From an uncultured Bacteroidales bacterium (GTDB lineage: Bacteria > Bacteroidota > Bacteroidia > Bacteroidales > CAIWKO01): a stretch of DNA of 64,000 bases. The stretch covers positions 4,068 through 68,067 of the forward strand of contig CAIWKO010000045.1 of the NCBI GenBank assembly GCA_903913285.1. Direction: 5' to 3'. Position 1 is the first letter of the stretch. Every line of letters begins with the position of its first letter. The position numbers and the translations under genes are program-made. Below are positions 3,901 to 52,181 of the stretch, piece by piece. The notes under the pieces were generated by a model. It was given only the letters and a program-made list of their open reading frames with translations. It ran no database searches and had not been told where the DNA came from.

Positions 3901-6561
3901 TATGGCAACTTGGCCGGTGTTAATAGCGGCGGAACTTCACCGCTCTGTTATAACAATGCACCGGGGACAATCACTGCAATACCCAGTGGCGGAACAGGTG
4001 TTTACACATATTTATGGTATAAGAACGGAGTTTCAACAGGAATTACAACTCAAGCCTATACTCCGGGCAATCTGACAACCACTTCGACCTTTTATTGTGA
4101 AATAACCAGTGTTCCTTGCGGTACTATCGCCACGCCAACCACTACCATTATCGTTTACGGTAATTTATCAGCGGTTATCACTGGCGGAACTTCACCGGTT
4201 TGTTATAACACATCACCGGGGGCATTAACAGCAAATGCAACAGGCGGAACCGGTTGGTACACCTATCTGTGGTACAAAAACGGAGTATCTACAGGCATTA
4301 CAACCAAAATATATACTCCCGCCAACCTCACGGTAAATACAACATTCTATTGTGTAGTTACCAGTGGTTCTTGCGGAACAGTTACAACTCCAACAGACAC
4401 TATTACCGTTTATACCAATTTGACTGCCGCTATCAGTGGCGGATCTACTTCTATTTGTTATAATACCGCACCGGGAACCTTCACGGCAACAGGTGGCGGT
4501 GGAAGTGGTATATATACCTATTTGTGGTACAAGAATGGTATAGCAACCGGAGTTACAACTCAAACCTACGCTCCCGGCAATCTGACGGCAAACGCAAGCG
4601 TTTATTGTGCAATAAGCAGCGGAACCTGTGGTCCGGTTAATACTCCAACCATCACAATTTCGGTTATGAGTAATATTATTGCCAATATCAGTGGTGGTAA
4701 TTCACCAATCTGTTATAACACTGCTCCGGGAACATTCACGGCAACTGCCAGTGGAGGCAATGGTTCGTACACTTATTTATGGTATAAAAATGGTATCTCG
4801 ACAGGGATCACTACCCAAACCTACACTCCGGGCAACCTGACAATAACTTCAACGTTCTATTGTGCTGTTTCAAGTGGCTCCTGCGGACCTGTAAATACCC
4901 CAACCACTACAATAACCGTTTATGACAATATTGTTGCTACAATTAGCGGCGGAACATCACCAATATGTTATAATTCTTTACCCGGAATGTTCACAGTTAA
5001 TGCTACAGGAGGTACAGGTACTTATTCCTACATGTGGTATAAAGATGGTGTTTCGACAGGGATAATAGCTCAAACCTATACTCCAAACGATCTGACAGCA
5101 ACTACAACATTTTACTGTGTTGTTACCAGTGGATCATGCGGACCGGTTAGTACTCCTACGATCACCATAACGGTTTATGGCAACCTAACTGCTGCTATCA
5201 GTGGCGGGACCTCACCTTTATGTTATAATTCTTCACCCGGAACTTTCACAGCAACAGCTGGTGGCGGAACGGGTAGCTATACATATTTGTGGTATAAAGA
5301 TGGTGTTTCAACAGGGGTTACAACACCAACTTATTCCCCCGGGAACCTGACAGCTACTTCAACATTCTATTGTGCAATAACCAGTGGAACATGCGGTACA
5401 GTCAACACACCGACAACCACCATAACTGTTTACGGCAATTTAACTGCAACTATAAGCGGTGGCACTTCGCCTATCTGTTATAACAGTTATCCCGGAACAC
5501 TGACTGTAACAGCAGGTGGTGGAACAGGTACCTATACGTATCTATGGTATAAAGATGGAATATCGACAGGTATTACAACCCAGATATACTTCCCCGGAAA
5601 CCTGACCACAACTACAACATTCTATTGTGTTGTAACAAGTGGATCTTGCGGATCGGTTACCAGTGCAACAACCACAATAACGGTTTACAACACACTGACA
5701 GCAGGAATTAGCGGAGGTACATCACCTATTTGTGCCAACACTTCACCGGGAACACTCACTGCAACAGGCAATGGTGGTTCAGGATCGTATACTTACTTAT
5801 GGTATAAGAACGGAACAAATACGGGTGTAACTACTCAAACGTATGCTCCCGGCAACCTGACATCAACATCTACTTTCTATTGTGCTGTAACAAGCGGATC
5901 ATGCGGAACGGTCAATACATCAACAATTACTATAACCGTTAATCCAACGTATTCGTTTACTGAAAACCATACGATATGTCATGGAGATGTTTACAACTGG
6001 CATGGAACCAACTATTCCACCGGAGGAACCTATACTGCAAACTACACTACTATCCATAGCTGCGACAGTATTTACACATTACATTTAACCGTAAATACAG
6101 TTGATGCCAGTGTTACAGTTTATAACAATATGATCACTGCAAATGCAACAGGAGCAACTTATCAGTGGGTTGATTGCAATAATGCTTACGCACCAATGAG
6201 TGGCTATACTTCTCAAAGTTTCTCAGCTACATATGATGGAAACTATGCAGTTATTGTAACAATAGGCTCCTGCTCCGATACTTCTGTTTGTGTTCCAATT
6301 CTTACTGTGGGAATTCCGTCTTCACAGGAAGAACAAATATCAATCTATCCTAATCCCGTATCTGAAGAGTTAACAATTGAAATTAGCGGAAATAAAGAAA
6401 CCAAAGAATTTGAGATCATTAATTCAATTGGTCAGATTGTTTTCGTTGGTAATATGGTAGAAAAAACCACCGTGAAAATGGATAGTTATGCTACCGGCAT
6501 ATACTTTGTTAAACTCCAAAGTGGCGGAAATATCACGTATAAGAAAATTATTAAGGAATAA
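865..6561 (+). CDS. Giant T9SS-secreted adhesin, downstream reading-frame segment. True coding probably resumes near nt 931-940. Domains are a glycine-rich domain, HYR repeats, a propeller-like repeat region, a PKD/Ig-like domain, nine 85-aa modules and a T9SS C-terminal sorting domain.
   Basis: The ORF is 1898 aa. Its N-terminal part continues the GGGGG-rich motifs of the upstream frame. HYR modules are at about 1290-2330 and 3040-3390. The C-terminus (ISIYPNPVSEELTIEI...GIYFVKLQSGGNITYKKIIKE) matches the Por/T9SS type-A CTD pattern. A rho-independent terminator follows. Confidence 0.85.
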   Translation: MAQVDLQIMVAAELMEMVQRVPSINGYAGGGAGWLSDGANGGGTACAIGYGGTSPLSGGAGGAYSGNTSAGGYGGGGGGGGWCNIVGAGGGGGYSGGGAGGAPSPGGPFDGGGGGGSFNSGTSQSNSIGNSGMGLVIISYAVIGITVVQTAGLPSGSTFPVGTTINTFEATDASGNSTTCSQTVTVKDTEIPSITCSGDVTKQNSPAQCGYTVDSYSNPTEFDPISVSDNCSGWTVTNNYNNLSTLSGASFPIGTTNVTWTVTDGGGNTNSCSFNITIEDHQNPLVQYFYSMPVTKNTDPSKCTYQAVGTELDPSSVTDNCPDIASLTFSTSGATTTSGSNTLAGVIFNQGTTNVQWIATDAHGNTGYGFLVVEVTDNENPTISCATPLASYSTDGGSCYYKVPDNSLDPTANDNCTVASVTNDFNNVSSLNGAVFPKGTSTVTWTVTDSNNNTATCTQTIIVKDNELPIITCPADFTVNADSGVCTASGVVLGTPTYSDNCAFATPVNEFYCTNNAGTSLMKINATTGAATDIGSFGFSDAFALAFTPDGKAWTLLNGYSNSQLANVDLTTGAATPVGTAFNFNSFDLEADASGQLIAVGSGDGNLYKINSTTGATSLVGFTGLYQMMDLAFDASGKLWAYNSNGNLYSINTTNGSATLESTLSGGIDVGMAMGLAINQSGTFYMTEYTPSPRLFSLDPATGVTTYISDLAASMPHGGDFLPESGATNNAPAIFPIGTTVVTWSVTDAAGNIGTCTQTVTVKDNELPIITCPADVAITSFTGLCYATGVDLGTPVTSDNCSVDGFINDAPVNFMPGNTIVTWTVTDGSGNNATCTQNVYVNLLPVAAGTITGDVIVCQGENSVTYTVPDITNATSYIWTLPTGATGTSTTSSITVNYGATAVSGDITVTGNNSCGNGDTSTLSITVYNSVIANISGGASPICYNTNPGILTASGSNGSGSYTYLWYKNGISTGVTTQTYDPGNLTATSTFYCAITSEPCGTVNTPTTTIMVYGNLAGVNSGGTSPLCYNNAPGTITAIPSGGTGVYTYLWYKNGVSTGITTQAYTPGNLTTTSTFYCEITSVPCGTIATPTTTIIVYGNLSAVITGGTSPVCYNTSPGALTANATGGTGWYTYLWYKNGVSTGITTKIYTPANLTVNTTFYCVVTSGSCGTVTTPTDTITVYTNLTAAISGGSTSICYNTAPGTFTATGGGGSGIYTYLWYKNGIATGVTTQTYAPGNLTANASVYCAISSGTCGPVNTPTITISVMSNIIANISGGNSPICYNTAPGTFTATASGGNGSYTYLWYKNGISTGITTQTYTPGNLTITSTFYCAVSSGSCGPVNTPTTTITVYDNIVATISGGTSPICYNSLPGMFTVNATGGTGTYSYMWYKDGVSTGIIAQTYTPNDLTATTTFYCVVTSGSCGPVSTPTITITVYGNLTAAISGGTSPLCYNSSPGTFTATAGGGTGSYTYLWYKDGVSTGVTTPTYSPGNLTATSTFYCAITSGTCGTVNTPTTTITVYGNLTATISGGTSPICYNSYPGTLTVTAGGGTGTYTYLWYKDGISTGITTQIYFPGNLTTTTTFYCVVTSGSCGSVTSATTTITVYNTLTAGISGGTSPICANTSPGTLTATGNGGSGSYTYLWYKNGTNTGVTTQTYAPGNLTSTSTFYCAVTSGSCGTVNTSTITITVNPTYSFTENHTICHGDVYNWHGTNYSTGGTYTANYTTIHSCDSIYTLHLTVNTVDASVTVYNNMITANATGATYQWVDCNNAYAPMSGYTSQSFSATYDGNYAVIVTIGSCSDTSVCVPILTVGIPSSQEEQISIYPNPVSEELTIEISGNKETKEFEIINSIGQIVFVGNMVEKTTVKMDSYATGIYFVKLQSGGNITYKKIIKE
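3649..5946 (+). repeat. Nine in-frame tandem repeats of 255 bp (the first is 258 bp), encoding 85-aa Cys-containing Ig-like or SprB-repeat-like modules within the adhesin.
   Basis: Unit starts are at 3649, 3907, 4162, 4417, 4672, 4927, 5182, 5437 and 5692. Each unit reads N[LI]xAxISGGTSPICYNxxPGTxTAxxxGGxGxYTYLWYKxGxSTGxTTQTYxPGNLTxTSTFYCxxTSGSCGxVxTPTTTITVY. The 21-mer gccaatatcagtggtggt recurs at 3661 and 4681, exactly 4 x 255 bp apart. Confidence 0.95.
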
Positions 6562-9084: not shown

Positions 9085-9768
9085 TTATTTTAATAATTTT
9101 TCTACTAAAACCGGAACACCAAGTCCGGCTTTTTCTTTTATTACAATAAGGTTGCTAAAATTAGAGGCGTTAGCCGCATTGGGGTCGATATAATATTTCG
9201 GAATATTTTGTGGTGCATAATTTATCAAGCCTGCTGCCGGATAAACATTCATTGAAGTACCAATAATCATTGCTATATCTGCCTTGCGAATTAATTCGGT
9301 TGCTTCAATAATTTTAGGGACTGCTTCGCCAAACCAAACAATATGAGGTCTTAGTTGTGAACCTTTTTCGCAGATATCACCCGTCAACAGATCTTTGTAT
9401 CCGATATCGTAAACAAGTTCATCATCGATCGAACTTCTTGCTTTTGTCAGCTCGCCATGAAGATGTAATATTTTTGTCGATCCGGCACGTTCGTGCAAAT
9501 TATCTACATTTTGAGTTATGATCTGCACATTAAATTTTTCTTCGAGTTTAGCCAAAGCATAGTGAGCAGCATTAGGTTCAACAGTTGCTAGTTGACGCCT
9601 GCGTTGATTGTAAAAATCGAGAATAAGTTTGGGATTGTTTTGCCATGCAGCATAAGTAGCAACATCTTCAATACGGTATTCCTCCCAGAGGCCATCACTA
9701 TCTCTAAAGGTCCGGATTCCGCTCTCAGCACTTATCCCGGCACCTGTTAATACAATAATTGTCTGCAT
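9085..9768 (-). CDS. cobB: NAD-dependent protein deacylase (sirtuin, Sir2 family).
   Basis: The protein is 227 aa and contains VLTGAGISAESGIRTFRDSDGLWE, ITQNVDNLHERAG and HLHGEL motifs. Confidence 0.9.
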   Translation of the reverse strand: MQTIIVLTGAGISAESGIRTFRDSDGLWEEYRIEDVATYAAWQNNPKLILDFYNQRRRQLATVEPNAAHYALAKLEEKFNVQIITQNVDNLHERAGSTKILHLHGELTKARSSIDDELVYDIGYKDLLTGDICEKGSQLRPHIVWFGEAVPKIIEATELIRKADIAMIIGTSMNVYPAAGLINYAPQNIPKYYIDPNAANASNFSNLIVIKEKAGLGVPVLVEKLLK

Positions 9769-9803
9769 TAATAAAACAATAAATACTGTTGAACTTCCTT
9801 GTA

Positions 9804-10304
9804 TTATTTTTGAACTCTGGTAAAATATTCCGATCTCCCGATTAAAGAGAATCCAACATATCCATGAATTTCCAGTACGTTTCGTTCAATAAGTTTAAGC
9901 CAGCATGAGTATTTATTTCCCGAATTCTGAGCATCATAAACCTTTCCGTCTACATATTTTCCGGTTCCAGAGTTATAAGTAAAATCTGTAAAGAGAATCA
10001 AATTTTGAAGAAGCCTGCCTCGAAGAGCTGGATTCGGATTATGTTTGTCACGTTTAGGTTTGCCGTCTTCAGGATCGTTCGGATTTTTCAACCAACTAAC
10101 CATAGCATAGTAATAACCACCACTCCGAAAAAAGGTCATTTTACCATCATTATTGGGTGTCCACCATTCACCACAAATATCATCAGCTTTGGATTTGGTT
10201 TGAGCGACTAATTTATTATCTTGAAAGATTAAAAAAAATAATAAAGTAACAGTAATACTAAACTGTAAACAATTTTTTAGGTTTTTCCTGGTTTTATTAT
10301 TCAT
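9804..10304 (-). CDS. DUF2147-family secreted protein.
   Basis: The protein is 166 aa with a signal peptide. It contains GEWWTPNNDGKM...GKVYDAQNSGNKYSCWLKL...LEIHGYVGFSLIGRSEYFTRV, the pattern I associate with DUF2147. Confidence 0.7.
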   Translation of the reverse strand: MNNKTRKNLKNCLQFSITVTLLFFLIFQDNKLVAQTKSKADDICGEWWTPNNDGKMTFFRSGGYYYAMVSWLKNPNDPEDGKPKRDKHNPNPALRGRLLQNLILFTDFTYNSGTGKYVDGKVYDAQNSGNKYSCWLKLIERNVLEIHGYVGFSLIGRSEYFTRVQK

Positions 10305-12661: not shown

Positions 12662-15600
12662 TTGAAACTTACTAAATATATAGTTCGATTTTTGGCTGTT
12701 GCTTGCATATTATCAATAGCATGGGCAAGTACAATAGATGTAAAACCTAACTATCGTTACTTAACAAACAAACTTATCACTCCCCCGGATACAAATCCGC
12801 CGGATACTACATTACCTTTTCCTTTCCATGATAATTCAGGAGATCCATACAGCACCCAACAAAATGGTGGTTTGTATCTTAACACGCCTTCCAATATTAA
12901 AACAGATGTAATTTACGATCCTGATGATAATGAGTATATATTAAGAAGTACTGCCGGAACACTTGATACACGCCAGCCAACGTATATGTCTTTTGGTGAT
13001 TATCAACAATATGATATGGATCAGGCCATGCAAAAATACTGGCGCGAAAAAACAAAAGCAAACCGCATAACAAAAGGTAATGGTAGTCTTATCGGTCCGA
13101 TCAGGATTAATAATAAGACCTTTGGTGATATATTTGGAGGAAATACTATTGACATCAAACCTACCGGATCTGCAGAACTTATCTTTGGCGTTATTTCGAC
13201 CAATACAAAAAATCCGGCACTCGATGTAAAACAACGCCGATCGACCAATTTTGATTTTCAGGAAAAGATACAAATGAATGTTACGGCAAAAATTGGAGAT
13301 AAAATTCAATTTGGCGTAAATTATAATACGGAATCCTCTTTCGATTTCGAAAATAAAATGAACCTGAAATACGAAGGTAAAGAAGACGAAATCATTCAAT
13401 TGATCGAAGGTGGAGATGTTTCACTACCGCTGACTACTACGCTTATAACCGGAAATCAATCACTTTTCGGGATAAAAGCCAAACTTAAATTTGGCAGATC
13501 GACCATAACCGCACTTTGGGCTCAACAAAAAAGTAAAACGCAAAATATTACGGTATCCGGTGGAGCCCAAACCAGTACATTTGATGTGAAAGCTGATGCA
13601 TACGAAGAAAATAAACACTTTTTTCTCTCACAATATTTTCGCGATAATTATGAAAATGCTTTAAAAAAGCTCCCTATTGTAACCTCCAACATCAATATTA
13701 CAAATATTGAACTTTGGATTACCAATATTGGTGCTGCAACAACAGATAATAGAAATATTGTTGCTTTTCAGGATATAGGTGAAGGTCAAAAGATCTATAA
13801 CCCGAATATTTATTCCACAGGATATTATCCGAGTAATCACGCAAATAATTTGTACTCATTAAATGGCTCATCTTATATTGATATTTCTCAAATACGGATT
13901 CTGAATAATGTAAATAATTATTTGGCTGCAAAAAGTTTTTCAAATGGTGTAGATTACGAAAAAGTAGAACTTGCCCGAAAACTTCAGCCATCAGAATATA
14001 CATTTAACAGCAAAATTGGATTTATTTCTTTGAATACTTCACTCAATTCTGATCAGGTTCTCGCAGTTGCATATCAATATACTCTTGTTGGCGATACAAC
14101 AGTCTATCAGGTCGGAGAACTGACAAGTACCGGGGTTAGTGCACCCAGTTGTTTAATGGTTAAATTATTAAAAAGTACGTCTTTAAACACAAAGGTTCCA
14201 TTGTGGAATCTTATGATGAAAAATGTTTATGCTATTGGTGGCTATCAGATTAATCCTGAGGATTTCCGTTTAAATGTATTATTTTCGGGTAACGACCAAG
14301 GAGTTCCAATGGGCTATCTAACGGAAGGTGCTGTAAATGCTGTACCACTTATCCGTGTTTTAGGTTGTGATCGTTTGGATATGAGCCAAAATCCGATTCC
14401 GGATGGAGTGTTTGATTTTATTGGAAATGCAGCAACTGCTGGAGGTTTGATCCAAGCTTCGAACGGCCGGATTTATTTCCCGGTATTAGAACCTTTTGGA
14501 AGTAATCTGAGAAAGGCCATTACAGGAGGAAACTCTTCTTTAAATTCAATTGCGGATAAATATTGTTACGATTCACTGTATACAATGACAAAAACAGGAG
14601 CACAACAATATCCGGATAAAAACAAATTTTCATTACAAGGTTTTTACAAATCAGCTTCCGGGGCAGAAATTTCATTAGGTGCAATGAATGTTCCTCAGGG
14701 ATCAGTTAAAGTTACTGCGGGTGGCATTCCTTTAGCAGAAAACGTTGATTATACTGTAGATTATACCCTTGGAAGAGTAAAAATTATTAATCAGGGTGTA
14801 TTAAATTCCGGAACTCCCATTAATATTTCACTGGAAAATAACAGTATGTTTAACATTCAGACAAAGACATTGATGGGGTTACGGTATGATTATATGATCA
14901 GTAAGAATTTTAATATAGGCGGTACTGTTTTAAATTTGACCGAAAAACCCTTAACACAAAAAGTAAATTATGGGGATGAACCTATTTCTAATACGATCTG
15001 GGGAGTTGATGGTGCCTATTCTACGGATGCCCGTTGGTTGACAAAGCTGGTAGATATGATTCCTTTAATTCAAACTAAGGCTCCTTCTTCTATCAATATG
15101 AATGGCGAATTTGCAAATCTTATTCCCGGACATTCAAAGGCGATCGGTAAATCCGGAACTACTTATATCGACGATTTTGAAAGCAGTAATTCGAGCATCG
15201 ATCTAAAAAATGTAGGTAGTTGGTTTATGGCAAGTACACCTCAGGGTCAAACGGACCTGTTTCCTGAAGGAGCAATCAATAGCGGACTTGCTTTTAATTA
15301 TAACAGAGCAAAATTTGCTTGGTATGTGATTGACCCTTCAGTGTTTTTCAGAAATAACAATCAGTTACCTCCTAATATTACAAAAGACGATATTTCAAAT
15401 CATTTTGTTCGTGAGGTTTTTGAACAGGAAGTTTTCCCTAATAAACAACCTGTTGATGGCCAGCCATCGGATATAGCCGTTTTAAATCTTGCTTATTACC
15501 CCAGAGAAAGAGGACCGAACAATTATGATGTAACCGGTTCGGAAGGATTTTCGGCTGGTTTAAATGCAGATGGAACACTTGCTGCTCCTGATTCCCGCTG

Positions 15601-18600
15601 GGCAGGAATGATGCGCAGGATTGAATCAACCGATTTTGAAGAAACCAACGTAGAATATATTCAATTCTGGATGATGGACCCGTTTGTTTATAATACATCA
15701 GCTGTTGGCGGACAAATGTATATTAATTTAGGCGATATCTCTGAAGATGTTCTGAGAGATTCGCGTAAAAGTATAGAAAACGGATTACCCGCAAATGGGG
15801 ACACTACAGGTGTTGTTGATTATACAATGTGGGGGTTGGTTCCTAAATCTCAACCTTTAACCAATTCCTTTGATAATAATGAATCATCACGTCAATATCA
15901 GGATGTCGGACTTGATGGTTTGCGCGATGTGGATGAACGCAATTATTTCAGTGCATATATCAACAAAGTGTTGGCTGCTTTTCCGGGATCACAGGCATTG
16001 ACCAATGCAACGGCGGACCCGTCAGGAGATGATTTTCATTATTTTCGTGGACCAGATTATGACAATCAGAGTAAAACTATTTTACAACGGTATAAAAATT
16101 TTAATAGTACAGAAGGAAATTCCCCAACAGATGCTCAGACTCAGGCGAATTACGGAGTTAGTTATCCCATGCAGTCTACGACCTTACCTGATGGCGAAGA
16201 TATTAACAGGGATAATACGTTAAGTGAAAGTGAACGTTATTTCCAATATCGAATAGATCTAACTCCAAGCAAAATGTTGGTTGGGCAGAATTATATCACC
16301 GATATGCTGGATGCTACAACAGGGACACTCCCTAATGGTTCTTCGGGCACTGTGCGTTGGTATCAGTTTAAAGTACCTATTCAATCTCCTGATAAAATAG
16401 TTGGCGGAATTCAGGATTTTAAATCGATCCGTTTTATTAGAGTCTTTTTTAAAGGCGTTACCGATTCCCTTATTTGCAGATTTGCTACATTTGATCTGGT
16501 TCGTGGTGACTGGCGGCGTTATAATTATGCATTATTAAGCCCGGGAGAATATATTCCAAATGATGACCAAACTTCTACGACTTTTGATGTTTCGGCAGTT
16601 AACCTTGAAGAAAATGGTCAACGTTCACCTATTCCTTATGTTCTACCTCCCGGAATTGACCGGGAAACAAATGCTGCTAGTACAACATTACAGCAACTTA
16701 ATGAACAATCACTTTCTTTAACGGTATGCAACCTGATGGATGGTGATGCACGGGCAGTTTATAAAACCTGCGATTTTGATATGCGTCGTTTTAAAACATT
16801 AAAGATGTTCGTTCATGCTGAAGCGCACAATAGTCAAAATGATATCAAAGATGGTGACCTAAATGTTTTTATTCGTTTAGGTTCTGATTTTAAAGATAAT
16901 TATTACGAATACGAAATACCTTTAGAAATCACACCTTGGTTTGAAAGTGATCCGGATAAAATATGGCCTGAAAACAATAGAATGGAAATTACCTTGGACG
17001 ACTTGGTACAAGCAAAGAAAAACAGAAATATTCAACTGAGAGAAGCCGGTTCTGGCGTTTCATTATCTTTACCTTTCATTAGTTATGATAGCAAGAATAA
17101 TAAGATATCTGTTATTGGAAATCCAAGTATCAGCGATGTAAAAGTAATAATGATCGGGCTCAGAAATCCAAAACGAGGAAATAGTAAATCAATTGATGAT
17201 GGTAAAGATAAATGTGCAGAAGTATGGGTTGATGAATTGCGTTTAACTGATTTTAATCAGAGTGGAGGGTGGGCTGCTACGGGTCGGATTGCGGCAACCC
17301 TGGCCGATTTTGGAAATTTAAGTTTAGCTGGTGCTATCAGTACTCCAGGATTTGGAAGCATTGATAAAAAGGTTAATGAACTCCAAAAGGAAACAATTAT
17401 TTCCTACAATATCGCCACTAATCTTGAGCTTGGTAAATTTTTCCCTCAAAAATGGGGAGTAAAAATTCCTATGCACTTTGATTATTCTGAAATAAGAAGC
17501 ACACCTGAATATAGTCCTCTTAATCCAGATGAGTTCTATAAGGATGAAATTAGTACGTTCGCAAATAAGAACGATCGCGATTCAATCAGAAAAATAACTC
17601 AGGATGTTATTACACAAAAAAGTTTAAATTTCATGAATGTGAGAAAAACAAAAGTGGGGGCTTCTACAAAAAACCACATTTATGATCTGGAAAACTTTGA
17701 CTTATCATATGCTTATACCGAATTGTATCATAGAAATATTGATATAGAATATGATCGAAAAACAACACATGTAGGAGGATTAGGGTATAATTATACGGCT
17801 ACTCTCAAACCAGTGAAACCTTTCGATAAATGGAAACTTATTTCTAAATCAAAATGGCTGCGCATAGTTAAAGATTTCAACTTTTATTATATGCCCAAAA
17901 TGCTTTCGTTCAGAACCGATTTGAACAAGAATTTTGAAGAAAATTTATTACGAAATAAAACAAATGCAATTATTATTTTAGAACCTACTTATATCAAACA
18001 TTTTGGATGGACTCGCGATTATGGTTTGAAATGGGATCTTACACAAAATCTGAAACTCGACTATCAGGCACATGCTATTGCATTAATTGATGAACCTGCC
18101 GGGAAGGTTGATAAAAGTGTTCCTGATTATAAAGAAAAAAGAGATTCTATTTGGAATAACGTTTTGAATTTTGGTCGTATGACTAATTATACTCAAACTG
18201 TCGATATTAATTATACTGTACCTATAAATAAAATACCAGCATTTAATTGGTTAAACTTAACGGCACGTTATGGTGGTACCTATAATTGGCAAGCTTTGCC
18301 ATTAACCACTAATGATGCTGGGACCATTATCGACAATCCATTGGGGAATAAAATTGAAAATTCAAATACAGAGCAATTAAACCTTACAGGAAATTTGGTC
18401 AATTTATATAATAAAGTTGGGTATTTGAAAAAGATCAATGATAAAAATAAAGGAGGAGGGAAGGATGTCAATAAGAAGAAGTCAAATATGCCAGCTACTG
18501 CTGAAGATTCAATTAAACCCAAAGTAAATTACTTTAAAACAATTATCGACAATACATTAAGATTGTTAATGAGCATCAAAACCGTTAATATTTCATATCA

Positions 18601-19951
18601 GGAAAGCAACGGTCGTGCATTACCCGGCTTTATGAACAAACCGGTTGCTTTAGGAATGGATTGGAAAACCATGTCGCCTACTTTGGGATTTGTATTTGGC
18701 AGCCCGGGAGATATGTTTGCTTCAACGGGTGATATTGTTGGGAGGGCGTTTGAAAAAGGATGGATATCACATGATACCACTTTAAATACTCCATTTGCTA
18801 TAAAACAAACAAAAGTTTTGAATGGCCAGATATCTTTAGAACCAATAAACGGATTAAAGATTGATATCACTGCAAATACAAATTTTGCGAAACAAAACCA
18901 GGCATATTATAGATATTTGGGTGATAATCAGATGAGTGAACCTTTTTCTATGGTTGAAACCGGAAATTTCAGCATGACTGTTATTGCCTGGAAAACTGCT
19001 TTTAAAAAGGATAATAAAGATAATTCATCGGATATTTTTAATTTGTTCAAAACAGATCGTTTAATAATTGCAACACGTCTGGCTGAACTAAATCCACATT
19101 CAACACACCTTATTGTTGATTCTACAAAATTCCCTGATGGTTATGGGCCTACATCACAAGATGTTCTTATTCCTGCTTTTTTGGCTGCTTATTTAGGAAA
19201 AGATCCTAATAAAATATCTCTTTCACCATTTTCGGAAAAGATATTGAAGGAGATACCTCTGCCTAACTGGAGAATAACATACAATGGTCTTACCAAGATC
19301 GGATTTATCAAAAGATACTTTAAATCTATTACCTTAAGCCATACATATCGGGCTACTTATAATGTAAGTTCTTTTAATACCAATGTGGTTTATAAGGAAG
19401 ATGATGATGGTTATGCGTTTATTAGAGATCAGATCGGAAATTTCCTTTCTAAAAAAGAGATAGGTCAAATATCCATTACAGAGCAATTTAGTCCACTTTT
19501 AGGGATTGATATGACAATGGTAAACAGCTTATTGTTTAAATTTGAATGGAAGAAATCGAGAAATTTAGGCTTGAGCTTTGCCAATAATCAACTTACTGAA
19601 ATATCTACTAATGAATATATTATCGGAGCAGGATATCGTATCAAAGATGTATCTTTCTCTATCAAAATGGGTGGAAAGCTAAAACCAATAAAGAGCGATC
19701 TGAATCTAAAAGCAGATTTTTCTATCCGGCAAAATAAAACCACACTTAGAAAATTAGTAGAAAATCAGGACCAGGTTTCTGCAGGTGGTCAGATTTTATC
19801 TATTAATATTTCTGCCGACTATCAGATAAGCGAAAAATTCAATATCCGTGCATTTTACGATCATATTATAAATACTCCTTATGTTTCTTCTCAATACCCT
19901 AATTCAAATATTAATGGAGGTATAAGTTTACGGTTTACTCTTGCTCAATAA
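12662..19951 (+). CDS. sprA: T9SS translocon / cell-surface protein SprA.
   Basis: The protein is 2429 aa, with a signal-like N-terminus and beta-rich sequence throughout. The size and the position directly downstream of ruvA match the arrangement I recall for Bacteroidota sprA. The only in-frame start at the 5' end is TTG at 12662. Confidence 0.85.
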   Translation: MKLTKYIVRFLAVACILSIAWASTIDVKPNYRYLTNKLITPPDTNPPDTTLPFPFHDNSGDPYSTQQNGGLYLNTPSNIKTDVIYDPDDNEYILRSTAGTLDTRQPTYMSFGDYQQYDMDQAMQKYWREKTKANRITKGNGSLIGPIRINNKTFGDIFGGNTIDIKPTGSAELIFGVISTNTKNPALDVKQRRSTNFDFQEKIQMNVTAKIGDKIQFGVNYNTESSFDFENKMNLKYEGKEDEIIQLIEGGDVSLPLTTTLITGNQSLFGIKAKLKFGRSTITALWAQQKSKTQNITVSGGAQTSTFDVKADAYEENKHFFLSQYFRDNYENALKKLPIVTSNINITNIELWITNIGAATTDNRNIVAFQDIGEGQKIYNPNIYSTGYYPSNHANNLYSLNGSSYIDISQIRILNNVNNYLAAKSFSNGVDYEKVELARKLQPSEYTFNSKIGFISLNTSLNSDQVLAVAYQYTLVGDTTVYQVGELTSTGVSAPSCLMVKLLKSTSLNTKVPLWNLMMKNVYAIGGYQINPEDFRLNVLFSGNDQGVPMGYLTEGAVNAVPLIRVLGCDRLDMSQNPIPDGVFDFIGNAATAGGLIQASNGRIYFPVLEPFGSNLRKAITGGNSSLNSIADKYCYDSLYTMTKTGAQQYPDKNKFSLQGFYKSASGAEISLGAMNVPQGSVKVTAGGIPLAENVDYTVDYTLGRVKIINQGVLNSGTPINISLENNSMFNIQTKTLMGLRYDYMISKNFNIGGTVLNLTEKPLTQKVNYGDEPISNTIWGVDGAYSTDARWLTKLVDMIPLIQTKAPSSINMNGEFANLIPGHSKAIGKSGTTYIDDFESSNSSIDLKNVGSWFMASTPQGQTDLFPEGAINSGLAFNYNRAKFAWYVIDPSVFFRNNNQLPPNITKDDISNHFVREVFEQEVFPNKQPVDGQPSDIAVLNLAYYPRERGPNNYDVTGSEGFSAGLNADGTLAAPDSRWAGMMRRIESTDFEETNVEYIQFWMMDPFVYNTSAVGGQMYINLGDISEDVLRDSRKSIENGLPANGDTTGVVDYTMWGLVPKSQPLTNSFDNNESSRQYQDVGLDGLRDVDERNYFSAYINKVLAAFPGSQALTNATADPSGDDFHYFRGPDYDNQSKTILQRYKNFNSTEGNSPTDAQTQANYGVSYPMQSTTLPDGEDINRDNTLSESERYFQYRIDLTPSKMLVGQNYITDMLDATTGTLPNGSSGTVRWYQFKVPIQSPDKIVGGIQDFKSIRFIRVFFKGVTDSLICRFATFDLVRGDWRRYNYALLSPGEYIPNDDQTSTTFDVSAVNLEENGQRSPIPYVLPPGIDRETNAASTTLQQLNEQSLSLTVCNLMDGDARAVYKTCDFDMRRFKTLKMFVHAEAHNSQNDIKDGDLNVFIRLGSDFKDNYYEYEIPLEITPWFESDPDKIWPENNRMEITLDDLVQAKKNRNIQLREAGSGVSLSLPFISYDSKNNKISVIGNPSISDVKVIMIGLRNPKRGNSKSIDDGKDKCAEVWVDELRLTDFNQSGGWAATGRIAATLADFGNLSLAGAISTPGFGSIDKKVNELQKETIISYNIATNLELGKFFPQKWGVKIPMHFDYSEIRSTPEYSPLNPDEFYKDEISTFANKNDRDSIRKITQDVITQKSLNFMNVRKTKVGASTKNHIYDLENFDLSYAYTELYHRNIDIEYDRKTTHVGGLGYNYTATLKPVKPFDKWKLISKSKWLRIVKDFNFYYMPKMLSFRTDLNKNFEENLLRNKTNAIIILEPTYIKHFGWTRDYGLKWDLTQNLKLDYQAHAIALIDEPAGKVDKSVPDYKEKRDSIWNNVLNFGRMTNYTQTVDINYTVPINKIPAFNWLNLTARYGGTYNWQALPLTTNDAGTIIDNPLGNKIENSNTEQLNLTGNLVNLYNKVGYLKKINDKNKGGGKDVNKKKSNMPATAEDSIKPKVNYFKTIIDNTLRLLMSIKTVNISYQESNGRALPGFMNKPVALGMDWKTMSPTLGFVFGSPGDMFASTGDIVGRAFEKGWISHDTTLNTPFAIKQTKVLNGQISLEPINGLKIDITANTNFAKQNQAYYRYLGDNQMSEPFSMVETGNFSMTVIAWKTAFKKDNKDNSSDIFNLFKTDRLIIATRLAELNPHSTHLIVDSTKFPDGYGPTSQDVLIPAFLAAYLGKDPNKISLSPFSEKILKEIPLPNWRITYNGLTKIGFIKRYFKSITLSHTYRATYNVSSFNTNVVYKEDDDGYAFIRDQIGNFLSKKEIGQISITEQFSPLLGIDMTMVNSLLFKFEWKKSRNLGLSFANNQLTEISTNEYIIGAGYRIKDVSFSIKMGGKLKPIKSDLNLKADFSIRQNKTTLRKLVENQDQVSAGGQILSINISADYQISEKFNIRAFYDHIINTPYVSSQYPNSNINGGISLRFTLAQ

Positions 19952-19987: not shown

Positions 19988-20012
19988 AAAAAATTTTAAA
20001 TAATAATTAAAA

Positions 20013-20393
20013 ATGAAAATAGCAGATAATTTATTGTATACTGAATCCCACGAATGGGTTAAAGTTGATGGCGATGAAGCTTACATCGGAATCTCTGATT
20101 TTGCTCAGCACGAATTGGGAGACATTGTTTTTGTTGAAGTTGATACGGTTGGTGAAACTATGGGTAAGGGTGAAACTTTTGGAACTATCGAAGCTGTGAA
20201 AACAGTGTCTGATATGTATTTACCCGTTAGCGGTGAGATTTTGGAATTTAACACCCTGATCGAATCGAATCCTGAAACCATCAATAAAGATCCTTATGGT
20301 GAAGGCTGGATCGTTAAAGTAAAAATGACCAATAAAGCCGAACTGGATTCTTTGATGAAAGCCGATGTCTATAAGTCACATGTTAATGCATAA
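20013..20393 (+). CDS. gcvH: Glycine cleavage system H protein.
   Basis: The protein is 126 aa. It contains YTESHEWVK, then GTIEAVKTVSDMYLPVSGEI (lipoyl-lysine motif) and DPYGEGWIVKV. Confidence 0.95.
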   Translation: MKIADNLLYTESHEWVKVDGDEAYIGISDFAQHELGDIVFVEVDTVGETMGKGETFGTIEAVKTVSDMYLPVSGEILEFNTLIESNPETINKDPYGEGWIVKVKMTNKAELDSLMKADVYKSHVNA

Positions 20394-20412
20394 TTAATTC
20401 ATAAAATACTTT

Positions 20413-20446
20413 AAAAGCTCCGTACAGATTGTCGGAGCTTTTTTTG
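20413..20446 (+). terminator. Rho-independent terminator after gcvH.
   Basis: Stem agctccg (20416-20422) pairs with cggagct (20433-20439) and is followed by a T7 run. Confidence 0.75.
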
Positions 20447-20579
20447 TATCATAAATAGTTCAAAAAAGCGTTACTACTAAGGAATATTTTCATAAAGGAT
20501 TATTTTCAGATAAATGCTTAAATTTATCCTTTTGTTTTTTGGCATTATGCTTGAAGAGATAATATAGAATTACAACTTG

Positions 20580-21344
20580 ATGAATAGCAACGATCGTTAT
20601 AACGAGATCATTTTTTATTATAGAAACAAACTCTATGGCGCCTATGTGATGCGCAAAAACTATAGAAAACAGTTGTTCTATTCGCTGCTAATTGCTGTTT
20701 TTGTTTTTATAATGGCTTTTGCTGTCCCCTTATGGTTACATAAACTTTCGGAACGACAACTTACCGAAAGTCCTGTTTATTCCGAATTTATGGTTACACC
20801 ACCTTTAGACAAAATACAACCCGATAATGAGGTTAATCCTGAACTTTTGAAGCTAATTAAAAAAGCAAAATTCGTTGCCCCTGTGGTTGTAACCGATTTA
20901 GACGAGACCAAGGATAATACTGATGAAGATGCTCAGGCTGCCGATTCGGCAAATAACGGAACCAGTTATAATGGCAGTAAGAATGGAGTTCTGGATGGTA
21001 ATGGAAGCGACGACAATGCAATTTACACTTACGTTCAGGAGATGCCTGAATTTCCCGGTGGTGATGTTGCTTTCAGTAATTTTCTGCAGAAAAATATCAG
21101 ATATCCGCAATTAGCTCTGAAAAACCGAATTCAGGGAAGAGTTTATGTTTCTTTTATTGTAGAAAAAAATGGAACAATTTCAAATATTAAGATATTGCAA
21201 GGCATAGGTGCTGGTTGTGACGATGAAGCGTTGAGAGTGATGCGTTTAATGCCTAAATGGAAAGCAGGAAAAAATCAGGGGCACGAAATTAGAGTTATTT
21301 TCCAAAAACCTATTAACTTTGTGCTTCAAACAAAAAGTTTATAA
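20580..21344 (+). CDS. Energy transducer TonB-family protein.
   Basis: The N-terminus is YRNKLYGAYVMRKNYRK followed by a TM helix. The C-terminal TonB domain reads YPQLALKNRIQGRVYVSFIVEKNGTISNIKILQGIGAGCDDEALRVMRLMPKWKAGKNQG. The ATG at 20580 is preferred over the TTG at 20577. Confidence 0.85.
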   Translation: MNSNDRYNEIIFYYRNKLYGAYVMRKNYRKQLFYSLLIAVFVFIMAFAVPLWLHKLSERQLTESPVYSEFMVTPPLDKIQPDNEVNPELLKLIKKAKFVAPVVVTDLDETKDNTDEDAQAADSANNGTSYNGSKNGVLDGNGSDDNAIYTYVQEMPEFPGGDVAFSNFLQKNIRYPQLALKNRIQGRVYVSFIVEKNGTISNIKILQGIGAGCDDEALRVMRLMPKWKAGKNQGHEIRVIFQKPINFVLQTKSL

Positions 21345-21345
21345 T

Positions 21346-21618
21346 ATGGGAACACATGCCGAAACAGATGAACATTTAGACCCCGAAACTAAAGCCTATA
21401 ACGATCTTATCAATGCGGGCAACGATTACGTGAAAATACAACTATATGCTTATGCCATAAAAAAATATAAGCAGGCATTATTAGTTAAACCATACGATAA
21501 GTATGCCAATGCCCAGATATACATGTGTAAAGCTAAATTTCGTAAGGATAATATGATCCTTGCAGCTATTGCATTAGTTGCTGTTATTGCTGTTTCACTT
21601 GTGATCTTTTTAAAATAA
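21346..21618 (+). CDS. Small tail-anchored protein of about 90 aa with one TPR-like helix pair and a C-terminal TM helix.
   Basis: The ATG at 21346 lies 2 nt after the tonB stop. The C-terminus ILAAIALVAVIAVSLVIFLK is hydrophobic. I recognise no family. Confidence 0.5.
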   Translation: MGTHAETDEHLDPETKAYNDLINAGNDYVKIQLYAYAIKKYKQALLVKPYDKYANAQIYMCKAKFRKDNMILAAIALVAVIAVSLVIFLK

Positions 21619-22047
21619 GATTTTTTCTTTTTTTTCAAATCTCTCGCATTTATTTTTGGCAACAGTTGTTGCTTTAATATTGTGTATCTACAACACATTA
21701 TTCTGCTGCTCTTCCATAAGCTGATCCATAATTACTTTTACTAATAAAGCCAATTTTTTATTTTCTTCCATCATTTGGGATACATACAACAGCGCCTAAT
21801 GTTGCTTCACAAAACTCATCACCTTTATATAGCTGCATAACTTGTCGATTTCATCATCGGTGAGATCGTGAGCCATAACTTTCAGGTTTAAATAAAAGGA
21901 TAATGTTGCTAAAAAACGATTGGAAATATTTGAAGGGGAAGATAATTTATGAAAACATTACTTAAATAGGTGTAAACTAAAATGATATTACTGACCAAGG
22001 GATAAAACAATACGGTTTTGCAGTTCGAAATTTCGGTTTTGTTCGTT

Positions 22048-22395
22048 GCAATATTGATCCTGACAATATCAATATTGATCCTGTTCATTGCAATATTGGT
22101 TTAATCAATATCAATATTGATTCTGTTCTTTGCAATATTGGTTTAATCAATATCAATATTGCTTTTGTTCTTCGCAATATTGGTTTAAACAATTTCAATA
22201 TTGCTTTTGTTCTTCGCAATATTGGTTTAATCAATATCAATATTGCTTTTGTTCTTTGCAATATTGGTTTAATCAATATCAATATTGCTTTTGTTCTTTG
22301 CAATATTGGTTTAATCAATATCAATATTGTTTTTGTTCTTTGCAATATTGATTTAATCAGGTTCAATATTGTTTCTGTTGGTTTCAATATTGTAA
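22048..22395. repeat. Non-coding tandem array of a 42-bp unit, eight full copies plus a partial ninth, rich in the palindrome CAATATTG.
   Basis: Units start at 22048, 22090, 22132, 22174, 22216, 22258, 22300 and 22342, with a partial unit at 22384. The consensus is GCAATATTGGTTTAATCAATATCAATATTGCTTTTGTTCTTT. Copies 5 and 6 are identical and the edge copies are diverged. Confidence 0.95.
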
Positions 22396-22881
22396 GCGTA
22401 AAATATAATATTTATCAGTGTTACCCCAAAATAATAAAGGATTTACGTTAAAGAGACATGGGTTAAAATAAGAAGAACATGAACTTTGCACTGCTTATAA
22501 AAAAACATAAGGCTATCGGTCGCAACAAGAACCTTGTTCAACTTTTGCACAAACATCAACTTTTTAATGCGCTTGTATATGCCACCAATCGTTTTTATGA
22601 GCTAGCAAAACAAAACTTCCAGCAGCTTTTTGATGAATTGGTTCAAAACTACAGTGCGGTGGTTGCCTTGTTTATGCAGGATGTTAAAACCAACGCCCAG
22701 CGCGAAGAAAATGCCGGAAGCCTGCTTCATTTTATTTCGTGCCTTATATAGGAAGCCATTCGCTATTCACAACCCGAAAAAGCAATATATAGCAATCAAC
22801 TCAAAGGCAATCTGCAGACCGATGGGTATGCAAACCCCAACAACGTGAATACCTATTGGATCACAAACAAAAATTATTGCT

Positions 22882-22916
22882 AAAAAAATCGGCTGGAATT
22901 TTGCAACCCCAGCCGA
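22882..22916 (-). terminator. Rho-independent terminator of the ppiD-like gene (minus strand).
   Basis: On the minus strand, stem tcggctgg pairs with ccagccga (8 bp) and is followed by ttttttt. It lies 25 nt past the stop codon. Confidence 0.75.
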
Positions 22917-22940
22917 ATTTCTATATTTAAAAAGATACTT

Positions 22941-25109
22941 TTAGTAGTAATTAATACGATTATCGGTTATATCCGTTTTATCTTTAATTGCCTTGAAAAC
23001 CTCGTTGGTAACCCGCGAACGGAAATAGCTGTTCATTTGCATTTTTACCATATCGGTATTCATGGCAGCAGCAGGTTGAGCAATGTCATTTAATAAAATT
23101 TCATACACTGCCATTTTGCCTTTAATAGGTTCGGAAAGAACATTCTTTTTCAATGTAAAAATAGTTCCTATAAGTTCAGGTTCAGGACCGTATTTGGGGA
23201 AATTATAAGCCGAAAATGTTAGTTGGTCAACAGTATCAACCTTAGTGTTGAATTTTACAGCTAACTGTTGAATATCTTTTATAGTGTTGGTGGCAGTTTT
23301 AACTTTTTCAATAAGTTGGTCGGCTTTCTTTTCGCGTTTCACAAGCGGTTCGATATACGATTTCACTTGCTCTAGCGGAGCTATGCCCTTTTTGCGTTTT
23401 TCAACCACTGCCGCAACCACATATTTTCCGTTTTCATCAAAAACCTGTTCTGAAATCATTCCTTTTTCGGTTTTTTCGTCATAAGCCCAACGAATAATAT
23501 CTCGGGCCGATTCAAGACCCGGTATGGTATAATCCATTTCTTTCACAAATTGAGCCGATCTTTTATTTAACCCTTTATCCGCAATGGTTTTCTTAAATTG
23601 TTCCATCGTTCTGTTGGTTCCTGCAAACTCACTTGCTTTGGCAAGATATTGATTAAAAGTTTCACTACTGGGTTTAATATCGTGTTTCACAATAGCAACT
23701 TTGATTTTCTTAATGGGTTCTTTTTTATCGGTAATATAAACTACATGATATCCCATTGAAGATTGTATAACCCTGAAATCACCTACTTTTGACTTATAGG
23801 TAGAATCATAGAAAAATTTATAATTGGCATCTCCGTCACCTATCCAACCAATTTCACCACCATCTTTCTTTGCTGACGGAAAATCAGATTTCACTTGGGC
23901 AATAGCTTTAAAGTTTTTAGGATCTTTTTTTACAACCTCAAATAAACTGTCGATTATCTTTTTTGCCTGATCTTTTGTACGTGTAATATTTTGTATAGGG
24001 TTCGGAGCATCTTTGTATGCAACCAGTATATGACTTATTTTGACAGAATCCGGACGATCTTGAATTTGCATCAATCGGGCCATATAATATGAATTGTTTT
24101 CAATATAAGGTGCTATAAAAGTTCCAACATTTGAAGCAAACATAACCGAATCTATTTTAACTGGTAAGCCACCTTTTTTATAAAAATTGCTGTCGTAAGG
24201 TGCATCGCTGTTTACTTTCATAAAGTTATCTATTTCATTACTGTTTGCTTTCTGAAAGTCAGCATAAATTCTACTCACATCTTCAGCAATCTTTTCCATG
24301 TCGGTTTTCGAAGGAAGTACTTCAAAGATCACATAATCCAGATCACGTGCATTTTCTTGTTCAAACTCATACTTATGTTCATCATAGTATTTTTGAAAAT
24401 CAGCATCTGTCACAGAAATTGCACTATCGGAAATAGTTTGATATTTAACTCCAACACAAAGCATCTTGGCAGTTTTTGCAGATTCATCAGCTATACGTTG
24501 TAAAAAGACTTTTGGCATATAATACCCCTGAGAGACGAGTGTATTGTACTTTGTATTGATCCTATCATCCTTTATGGCTTGTTCCAAACGTTTCCATTGT
24601 TGTTTTTCCTCATCCTTCATCTGGTCGAAATTCTTGACAATATTTTGAATTTGCTGAATATTAACTTGCCCGGTATTTGGATCAGCAAAATTTTGCACGA
24701 TAAAAGGATGCAGGTTTTTTCCCATCATCAGATCGTAAAGTTCTTCAGGGCTAATGGATGCTTTTGTTGTTTTTTCATGATCCTGTGCCAAGCCGAGTTC
24801 TTCATATTCTTTTTGCATGATTTGATCTTTCACCAGTTTATCCCAGGTAGAAACCATTATCTGAAAATTTTCGGCTGAGGTCAGATTTTCTTTTTTAGCC
24901 TGCTGCTTATATGATGTAACCTGTTCTTCCACTTTTTGGTCGAAATCTATCTTGCTGATCTTTTCCCCTGCAATTTTTGCAAAAAGCTGACTTTTATGTC
25001 CGGCTCCACTCTTTTTGAAAAAATCCTGAAGTACAAATCCCCCCAATGCTACACCAATTAAAATTACTAGTAACGCTGAATGTTTACGTATTTTACCAAT
25101 TACTGCCAT
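22941..25109 (-). CDS. Periplasmic chaperone / peptidylprolyl isomerase, PpiD/SurA-like with a parvulin domain.
   Basis: The protein is 722 aa. The N-terminus MAVIGKIRKHSALLVILIGVALGGFVL is a PpiD-type anchor, and the parvulin block is VKISHILVAY...GGEIGWIG. Confidence 0.85.
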   Translation of the reverse strand: MAVIGKIRKHSALLVILIGVALGGFVLQDFFKKSGAGHKSQLFAKIAGEKISKIDFDQKVEEQVTSYKQQAKKENLTSAENFQIMVSTWDKLVKDQIMQKEYEELGLAQDHEKTTKASISPEELYDLMMGKNLHPFIVQNFADPNTGQVNIQQIQNIVKNFDQMKDEEKQQWKRLEQAIKDDRINTKYNTLVSQGYYMPKVFLQRIADESAKTAKMLCVGVKYQTISDSAISVTDADFQKYYDEHKYEFEQENARDLDYVIFEVLPSKTDMEKIAEDVSRIYADFQKANSNEIDNFMKVNSDAPYDSNFYKKGGLPVKIDSVMFASNVGTFIAPYIENNSYYMARLMQIQDRPDSVKISHILVAYKDAPNPIQNITRTKDQAKKIIDSLFEVVKKDPKNFKAIAQVKSDFPSAKKDGGEIGWIGDGDANYKFFYDSTYKSKVGDFRVIQSSMGYHVVYITDKKEPIKKIKVAIVKHDIKPSSETFNQYLAKASEFAGTNRTMEQFKKTIADKGLNKRSAQFVKEMDYTIPGLESARDIIRWAYDEKTEKGMISEQVFDENGKYVVAAVVEKRKKGIAPLEQVKSYIEPLVKREKKADQLIEKVKTATNTIKDIQQLAVKFNTKVDTVDQLTFSAYNFPKYGPEPELIGTIFTLKKNVLSEPIKGKMAVYEILLNDIAQPAAAMNTDMVKMQMNSYFRSRVTNEVFKAIKDKTDITDNRINYY

Positions 25110-38741: not shown

Positions 38742-39610
38742 AAATTATTTTTAGGCTTTTTTATAAAGACTTGCTCAGGATCTCACAGATCAATTATTAT
38801 TTACAAGTCTGATTCCTATTAAATTGCAAAATTATTTGCACAAATCAATAAGCAAATATAACACTAATTTTTAAATAAACAACAATCGGCCTGCATATAA
38901 ACCCATAAAGTGATGATGAACGAAGAAGCATATTTGGCATTAAACAACGTAGCCCGCATAAAAAAGAAAACCTGCAGACAGGTACAGGTTTTCCAAAAAA
39001 AACTAAACGATTATTAATCATTAAACCATGCGTCGCGACGGTCAAAATCCCACCGTCAATTATAAAACGTTTTGCGCTAAAACTTATTGTATTCTTTTCT
39101 TGTTTTTTTATTTCCATTACCCACCCTGTTTTCCAATATCTCATTAATATCCCCCTCGAAATTAAAACCCCAACCAAATTTATTAACAAAAAAAATAGCT
39201 TATTGACTATCAGACCTCCTTCTAGCTTATCATACCTGAGCCAATCTGTTATTGAAGGCTCTTCATTTTTTACTGATTCTTCTTTTTCTTTCACTGTACC
39301 TAATTTTTCCTTCACTGTACATGTTTTTTACAACAATGAACCTAATTTTTACGACTGTGAACATGTTTTACGGATTATAACTAAGGTAATAATCATTGAA
39401 AGAGCACGTTGCCACGCTCGCGTTTTTAATGCATGCTTTTTCCCCGTTCGACTATAACACCAGATTGAGGGCTGAAGTGAATTAAATTAGGGGAAAAAGG
39501 AGTTGTAAAACCTAAAGCGTAAAAATATAAAAGCTGAAAGAACAACCTGGGAAAGTGAGTATTATAAATCAAATTTTGCAAATGATAGCTTTGCCGCAAA
39601 GCTATGGTTC

Positions 39611-52017: not shown

Positions 52018-52181
52018 GTTGTAATGGTTTTAGTGAATAAATAGTTTGTGAAATTTTGATTGAATTGTCAAGGGGAAAGAAATTGTTTTAGCATTTTTTC
52101 CTGTGGTTGCAATCAATCAAATTTTTCCACACCAATTTGGTGGTGCAAAAGTAAAGCTTTTTTTGAGAATACAAAAAGATT

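Follow-up and report, generated by a model that had tools for sequence, protein, structure and literature searches.

The window, by which we mean the entire 64,000-nucleotide stretch of DNA analyzed here, is a segment of a Bacteroidota chromosome. To the left of an intergenic gap, its plus strand encodes SprA (12662-19951), GcvH, a TonB-C protein and a 99-aa ORF ending at 21618; to the right, the minus strand encodes a PpiD/SurA-like protein (22941-25109), then CorC, LptC and CoaX. The gap holds a tandem repeat array. The preliminary description of this DNA had called the gap gene-free, but a decayed gene of a protein family that we term A starts 86 bp 3' of the array, and the same arrangement is found in another genome. 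The gap is organized as follows:

22028-22048, no strand assigned: left edge unit AAATTTCGGTTTTGTTCGTTG, degenerate, resembling the T-rich spacer and without the core (TRF places the array start at 22037)
22049-22392, no strand assigned: core array, in which CAATATTG recurs every 21 bp as 17 exact palindromes and two spacer types alternate
22393-22478, plus strand: interval from the last core to the ATG of the A remnant, 86 nt, presumed promoter and leader
22479-22883, plus strand: A-family pseudogene remnant, a 90-codon ORF with an in-frame TAG at 22749-22751, the frame closing with TAA at 22881-22883

No tRNA was detected in the gap, and a search against Rfam 15 returned no family at the gathering threshold, only chance-level matches (E 0.57-0.99). 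Genes of the rep, par, cas or integrase type are absent within about 10 kb, and no match to the DnaA box TTATCCACA, allowing up to one mismatch, lies between 18551 and 23575. Gene orientation switches from plus to minus at about 20000-24000 and the cumulative GC skew reaches its window maximum at the array gap, which is probably mere operon convergence. A replication terminus or origin was rejected as an explanation, because a homologous module in another genome (locus L050, described below) lies off any convergence point and DnaA boxes are lacking. On the other side of the array, three overlapping short minus-strand ORFs in different frames (21688-21876; MAHDLTDDEIDKL..., MQLYKGDEF... and ...MEENKKLALLVKVIMDQL...) look like a frameshifted gene remnant. 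Farther away, the window contains a 255-bp (85-codon) tandem repeat at 3666-5918 (8.8 copies, 70% identity) inside a 1898-aa ORF (865-6561), presumably a repeated-domain surface protein, and a SAM-II riboswitch on the minus strand at 52078-52136 (65.9 bits against a gathering threshold of 44), located 5' of the minus-strand ORF 50707-52017.

TRF delimited the array to 22037-22392 with a period of 42 bp, 8.5 copies, 91% matches, a score of 528 and a 21-bp sub-period. The 42-bp tandem array originally described was thereby recovered, although 42 bp holds only as a super-period. The basic period is 21 bp, that is two helical turns, and two sub-units with different 13-bp spacers make up the longer one. 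In the 21-bp register, each unit consists of a CAATATTG core and a 13-bp spacer; since two spacer types with the consensus sequences GTTTAATCAATAT and CTTTTGTTCTTTG alternate, a 42-bp super-period results. Across the 64-kb window, CAATATTG occurs 23 times versus 2.57 expected, a count reached in none of 100 shuffles, and 17 of these 23 copies sit at 22049, 22070 and so on to 22385 in exact 21-bp steps, forming the only array of this kind in the window. The palindrome count of roughly two dozen proposed earlier has to be lowered accordingly, as the array holds 17 full 8-mer palindromes and 23 is the number of CAATAT hexamers. Within the 42-bp units, GCAATATTG and CAATATTGC could form 9-bp stems with 13-nt loops. 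With only two alternating types of 13-bp spacer, where a CRISPR array would have unique ones of ~30 bp, and no cas gene among the annotated neighbors, the array is not a CRISPR locus, as had been stated. Compared to the 42-bp consensus, core positions showed no mismatches (0/128), whereas 26 of 208 spacer positions deviated (Fisher p=2.6e-6), and the cores remain perfect even where edge units have diverged most. This perfection could partly stem from recent homogenization instead of selection. A second, short repeat of 21-bp period with the consensus TTTTTCCTTCACTGTACATAA (about 3-4 units, 39283-39375) lies directly 5' of a minus-strand ORF (38845-39315) without a Pfam family, and is possibly a smaller representative of this type of upstream array.

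Downstream of the array, a degenerate core, TAATATTT, is found at 22406, exactly 21 bp beyond the last core. We infer a promoter function for the interval 22393-22478, in which a single sigma-70-like match (22442-22469) scores no higher than shuffled sequences. The A remnant that follows shows in-frame homology past its TAG to about residue 120 of a family of about 295 aa (up to 22880) and runs into the terminator of the PpiD-like gene (22916-22889). P0001, a 294-aa hypothetical protein from a Bacteroidota MAG, is homologous to the remnant over the N-terminal ~120 residues and carries a Ser where the remnant has the TAG. Because of this stop codon, and because it falls far short of the family length, the window copy is a pseudogene remnant. 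Using a two-member seed profile that includes the window sequence itself, hmmsearch yielded E=1.9e-47 for 22467-22748 and E=1.3e-09 for 22752-22880; an independent 35-member A profile confirmed the first segment (E=6.6e-13 for 22467-22748) and gave no match for the second (22752-22880). The remnant is devoid of the basic C-terminal domain of the family. Also missing is the downstream gene of a second family, B, the profile HMM of which matched nowhere in the window. With A broken and B absent, the module in the window is a relic and an incomplete member of its kind: the array and its 5' position are present, and an intact B is not.

The preliminary description had allowed for an assembly artifact. 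The 90-aa ORF, however, occurs on 12 metagenome contigs, and metagenomes assembled independently show the array for this species as well (L045, L046, L048; locus numbers of this form denote the sequences compared), so it is not an artifact of assembly. Relative to the window, L045 has 100% identical flanks but 13 instead of 17 cores, an exact difference of 84 bp (2 x 42) inside the array, and several metagenome contigs stop within the array. Array length is therefore either polymorphic or collapsed by short reads. These observations would fit a contingency locus, in which phase or dose variation through 42-bp length steps switches or grades downstream expression: the difference is an exact multiple of the 42-bp step between identical flanks, and several assemblies break inside the repeat. 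The 84-bp difference may, however, be short-read collapse. Known contingency repeats are built from 1-7-bp units and exert their effect through promoter spacing or reading frame, whereas the array here lies upstream of the leader. Such a locus would moreover still need a binder and would thus refine, not replace, the protein-binding explanation developed below; as a reading of its own we consider it decidedly unlikely. A further metagenome contig of 830 bp (L049) carries the same A remnant but a wholly different sequence left of CCAAAATAATAAAGG, where the array would be expected; the region of the alternative junction is L049 1-52 versus window ~22375-22427. The alternative sequence had no match among the other loci compared, and the contig could represent a rearranged or array-less allele or be chimeric.

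Could the array be a functionless relic minisatellite of a former A-B module, kept by unequal crossing-over or slippage, with core invariance reflecting recent homogenization? The adjacent A gene is truncated by an in-frame TAG and B is gone, copy number varies between assemblies, and the stretch between array and ATG offers no convincing promoter match. The unit pattern fits as well: the 42-mer of the preliminary description is found exactly at 22216 and 22258 and with 32-34/42 identity at the edge copies, so that its account of identical central and diverged outer copies, as in a homogenizing array, holds. Homogenization nevertheless leaves unexplained why 26 substitutions fell into spacers and none into 128 core positions, and the cores are perfect in the diverged edge units as well. 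In addition, useless repeats are usually deleted from bacterial genomes, yet 344 bp were retained here. On balance, we regard this relic explanation as unlikely.

Scanning 185,579 species genomes for three CAATATTG cores at 21-bp spacing returned 37 loci. Many of these, from cyanobacteria, Borreliella and others, are heptad repeats within coding sequence and have no relation to the array, but a coherent set from Bacteroidota and Chlorobi comprises intergenic arrays with conserved cores, variable spacers and, often, 42-bp alternation. The same architecture is seen in another Bacteroidota lineage on L050, a contig of 168 kb, where a 19-unit array (9529-9914) is followed by P0001, a full-length A, and then by a 208-aa B. 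There, CAATATTG and CAATATGG cores alternate and the spacers differ from those in the window, while the 42-bp alternation is the same. The distance from the array to the ATG of A is 86 nt, identical to that in the window, even though the two A proteins are only distantly related (seed alignment; profile E=6.6e-13). Genes of the B family also lie 3' of CAATATTG arrays in L011, L018, L020 and L025, and a distant B-like gene follows the CAATATTG array of L030 (hhalign probability 93.5%). Some other genomes contain 2-4 arrays each, and the whole 21-bp unit can be common to arrays at different loci of one genome (L019/L023/L030, L013/L034 and L024/L029). Judged by sequence, such sharing of units within a genome resembles the regulon of one binder.

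In two other genomes, the array and the first part of the downstream gene or leader are duplicated to a second locus (L024 1-511 and L023 1811-2160). The A copy in the L024 duplicate is truncated to 111 aa, and the L023 duplicate has about 80 bp of flank in common with L030 and no gene after it. Orphan arrays with gene stumps, like that in the window, recur. In arrays of BWOrgHeat MAG6 (L023 2042-2083 and L037 38-79), the last unit is inverted, which generates a near-perfect palindrome of about 34 bp centered on the final CAATATTG (TTTGTAGCACGGACAATATTGTCCGTGCTACA). Finally, a large viral contig from IMG/VR (L041, 200,761 bp) holds three arrays of CAATATTG at 21 bp, with 4-5 units each, within a larger repeat of ~666 bp (3995-5393); these adjoin genes for C2H2-like zinc-finger proteins.

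Complementarily, we picked B homologs by protein search, making no use of the DNA motif, and then fetched their contigs. This provided seven independent B loci: L052/53 (Mangrovibacterium marinum), L054 (Arachidicoccus), L055 (a Flavobacteriales MAG), L059-61, L062, L063 and L064/65. All seven carry an array of 21- or 42-bp period with ~5-18 units just upstream of B, and none of the seven uses CAATATTG. Other cores are employed instead, including AACTC-N6-GAGTT, TCCG-N4-CGGA-like sequences, TTCATGAA (loosely TSATSA), GCAATGG / GCATGC and TGCA / TGTACA. Among 1,628 segments of 200 bp from 12 sources (~163 kb; L064/65 left out), a periodicity scan identified 24 with at least 0.5 identity at the best lag. 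All 24 had a lag of 21 or 42 and lay directly 5' of A or B, which makes this periodicity a specific and conserved attribute of the A/B neighborhood. In module members, the array lies 5' of A or B on the sense side at a distance of about 77-270 bp, the window falling at 86 nt.

Core symmetry is less general than spacing. Palindromy is frequent among the arrays; it was significant in the CAATATTG arrays, L059 and L020 but not in L054, L062 and L063, and the idea that all cores are palindromic did not hold. The neighboring regulators vary as well, the two Mangrovibacterium loci having a Crp-like gene, L055 and L059 a Trans_reg_C gene, and the window none; a shared neighboring regulator was not found across the loci compared. 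The 5-N6-5 palindromes of Mangrovibacterium fit Crp-type sites. Between array and B, L055 (3800-3900) and L059 (3800-3880) contain GGAACGGGGAACGGC twice, about 60 bp apart, a pair that could act as promoter or as an additional operator. Directly 3' of the Mangrovibacterium marinum B gene, L052 bears a 357-bp tandem repeat (4765-5582; 2.3 copies, 96% identical) that is absent from the gene calls of the other assembly.

Next to these comparisons, the possibility that the array encodes a protein of 7- or 14-residue repeats deserves consideration, as 21 bp equal 7 codons, one plus-strand frame is open from 21981 to 22448, and gene callers predicted ORFs over the arrays in L050, L052, L055 and L059. 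The sole frame open across the window array, however, has no ATG, GTG or TTG start. Comparison of units gave a pN/pS of 5.85 in the window and about 0.6-1.2 in other arrays, and in the stop-free frames of L050 pS is 0, with all differences being non-synonymous. Column entropy revealed a conservation block at the core and no 3-periodicity, in-frame stops interrupt or closely follow the arrays of L055 and L059, and arrays differ in which frame, counted from the core, is open. We consequently rejected a coding repeat protein, for which there is no start codon, no pN/pS at or below 1 in the window and no 3-periodicity, and consider it hardly credible; the periodic ORFs are read-throughs, as the preliminary description had already suggested. 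The window array is a real, constrained, non-coding element.

Being non-coding, the array might still act as RNA, namely as a repetitive leader or ncRNA with 8-mer hairpins that are bound by a protein or determine how the downstream mRNA is translated or how stable it is. Its location 5' of A/B in every module would suit such a role, as would the strong predicted fold (MFE -115 kcal/mol, z = -7.4). A fold of this strength, however, follows automatically from tandem palindromes, and there is no dominant structure (MFE frequency 0). The array has no Rfam match even at E<=1 and no known promoter 5' of it. Arrays elsewhere speak against conserved hairpins: every second core in L050 is CAATATGG, which breaks the pairing, the cores of L054, L062 and L063 are not self-complementary, and the two variable core positions in L059 do not covary. 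Action as RNA therefore appears quite unlikely to us.

What do the associated genes encode? When 1.84 billion representatives were scanned exhaustively with HMMER, 51 members of the A family emerged, with lengths of about 285-330 aa; a word-indexed protein search recovered almost none of these relatives. A has no sequence match in Pfam, NCBIfam or the PDB. Its AlphaFold model (pLDDT 89) combines an all-alpha N-domain with an alpha/beta C-domain, has no Foldseek match better than E=0.5 and displays no recognizable DNA-binding fold. The C-domain is strongly basic (median pI 9.5), which makes it a candidate binder, only where A is present. B, at about 205 aa, is predicted to consist of a three-helix bundle and an FN3 domain (pLDDT 88), and structural matches in the PDB and BFVD were obtained for the FN3 part only. 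B as the DNA binder is unlikely in view of its acidic N-domain, the FN3-only matches and the fact that CAATATTG is shared by loci with B proteins of 22-35% identity; the protein looks structural. A was also rejected as a universal partner of the array, since the A-subfamily loci L056 and L058 are without arrays. For the same reason, we consider B the tight partner of the array and A an optional insert between the two.

The form of the array had invited its interpretation as an iteron-type origin or a plasmid-type centromere, and an integrated plasmid or mobile element with a sopC/parC-like site would be the corresponding explanation. In the type Ia partition system of the F plasmid, SopB binds to sopC, where a 43-bp unit is directly repeated 12 times and every unit includes a 16-bp inverted repeat as the binding site (PMC3177203). 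By analogy, sopC can be regarded as the closest formal counterpart of the window array, both comprising tandem, near-identical units of ~42-43 bp with a palindromic motif in each (protein-binding in sopC) beside the genes they serve or would serve. The differences are substantial: the window array has two palindromes per 42 bp and hence a true period of 21 bp, is located upstream instead of downstream of its genes, and lies in a chromosomal housekeeping context with neither a ParA/ParB homolog nor plasmid homologs. The array also resembles plasmid iterons in form, and one genome (L024) carries a duplicate of the array and of the 5' portion of A at another site, which would suit this explanation.

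Several lines of evidence argue against this origin or centromere explanation. Rep, par and integrase genes are missing within the ~10 kb surveyed, as is a DnaA box in the gap. Neither A nor B belongs to a Rep family (Pfam, NCBIfam and PHROGs scans, neighbors included) or to the ParA, ParB, ParM or TubZ families, fold searches revealed no NTPase fold, and A has no Walker-type or other family match. By tblastn, A and B have no homolog in 72,556 PLSDB plasmids, and B has none in 50,697 INPHARED phage records. Moreover, arrays recur 5' of a chromosomal gene family in many taxa. Since the flanks are conserved housekeeping operons (SprA, GcvH, TonB-C, PpiD-like, CorC, LptC, CoaX), the iteron and centromere readings fail, and we rate the explanation as highly improbable.

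Other known systems share individual traits with the array. Plasmid iterons are 17-22-bp direct repeats bound by Rep initiators (R6K, pPS10, P1); they are asymmetric, usually present in 3-7 copies, and accompanied by a rep gene, an AT-rich region and DnaA boxes. Common to both are a period of ~21-22 bp on one helical face and a position beside a gene, often upstream of it; in iterons this is the gene of the binder, for which the repeats double as operator, and their specificity evolves fast, as that of the arrays would. Here, in contrast, the copies number 17-19, their core is symmetric, and rep gene, AT-rich region and DnaA boxes are all missing. Centromere-operators of type Ib, II and III (parC of R1 or pSK41, parH of TP228, tubC) are bound by ribbon-helix-helix or wHTH adaptors. 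Like our arrays, they lie directly 5' of a small operon, and, as proposed for ours, they overlap its control region and support a cooperative higher-order complex, but their periods are 7-20 bp with contiguous dimers and they need a ParA, ParM or TubZ NTPase, for which A and B show neither family nor fold. A center-to-center distance of 21 bp is also known from LytTR operators (9-bp repeats and a 12-bp spacer) and AraC I1-I2 half-sites, where this phasing places adjacent subunits on one face upstream of the regulated promoter. These, however, are direct-repeat pairs and not arrays of 12-19 units, their motifs bear no relation to CAATATTG, and the neighborhood contains neither a LytTR nor an AraC gene. 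REPs, finally, are imperfect palindromes of ~35 bp in alternating orientation, found mostly at gene 3' ends in hundreds of copies in enterobacteria. BIME/REP elements likewise form intergenic arrays of short palindromes with two alternating linker types, of which a genome can hold several near-identical ones; ours differ in their strict 21-bp period, their 8-bp core and their position 5' of a specific gene family. Literature searches on the motif and on 21-bp Bacteroidetes repeats gave nothing relevant, and no described element with the window unit or the A/B gene association was retrieved, in line with the initial assessment. The module, in the order array, (A), B, is undescribed yet widespread.

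Our preferred reading, to which we give about even chances, is that the array is a helically phased, multi-site, protein-binding regulatory platform of this undescribed chromosomal array-gene module, of which the window holds a decayed copy. It builds on the two-turn spacing, the confinement of constraint to the core, the lineage-specific cores within a conserved geometry, the fixed 5' position and the sharing of units within genomes. Of the possibilities listed originally, the cooperative platform for a dimeric regulator was indeed the best generic choice, given invariant palindromic cores, variable spacers, the strict 21-bp step and recurrence 5' of one gene family. Protein binding and a regulatory role are what we infer from these data. 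In detail, the array would be a non-coding cis element, a row of sites for a sequence-specific, probably dimeric DNA-binding protein, with one palindromic site per two helical turns and all sites on one face of the DNA. Pairing of sites at 42 bp suggests binding as a dimer of dimers or as a cooperative filament. In the proposed module, a 21/42-bp array precedes an optional A and then B, with its predicted three-helix bundle and FN3 domain, and transcription of A/B would most likely be under the control of the array, acting as a multi-site operator or a platform akin to an enhancer. The dose of the array could be tuned as 42-bp units are gained or lost. Retention of perfect cores beside relic genes points to a trans-acting binder whose gene lies elsewhere in this genome, unless the array is merely of recent origin.

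A bolder version of this platform reading, which we put forward tentatively and consider somewhat unlikely, regards the arrays as a novel class of cis element on the chromosomes of Bacteroidota and of some neighboring phyla, distinct from origins, centromeres and classical operators alike. They would form a long, rapidly evolving, phased docking track of 12-19 sites, on which a one-sided filament or condensate switches A and/or B, possibly heritably and in a manner tunable by array length, while orphan arrays, that of the window among them, would continue to serve as sinks for the protein.

If binding tracks they are, the arrays would be among the longest regular operator-like structures seen on bacterial chromosomes, tied to the two unannotated families A and B. 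Their constant geometry with cores that differ between lineages would constitute a natural experiment in the co-evolution of DNA-binding specificity and binding sites. For genome annotation, the periodic 'genes' called over such arrays are artifacts, an example being a 139-aa call in L050. Intact modules are found in the cultivable Mangrovibacterium lignilyticum, M. marinum and Arachidicoccus ginsenosidimutans, which makes the idea directly testable. Together, these arrays may represent a new case of gene control tunable by repeat length in Bacteroidota, a phylum in which transcriptional regulation is poorly mapped.
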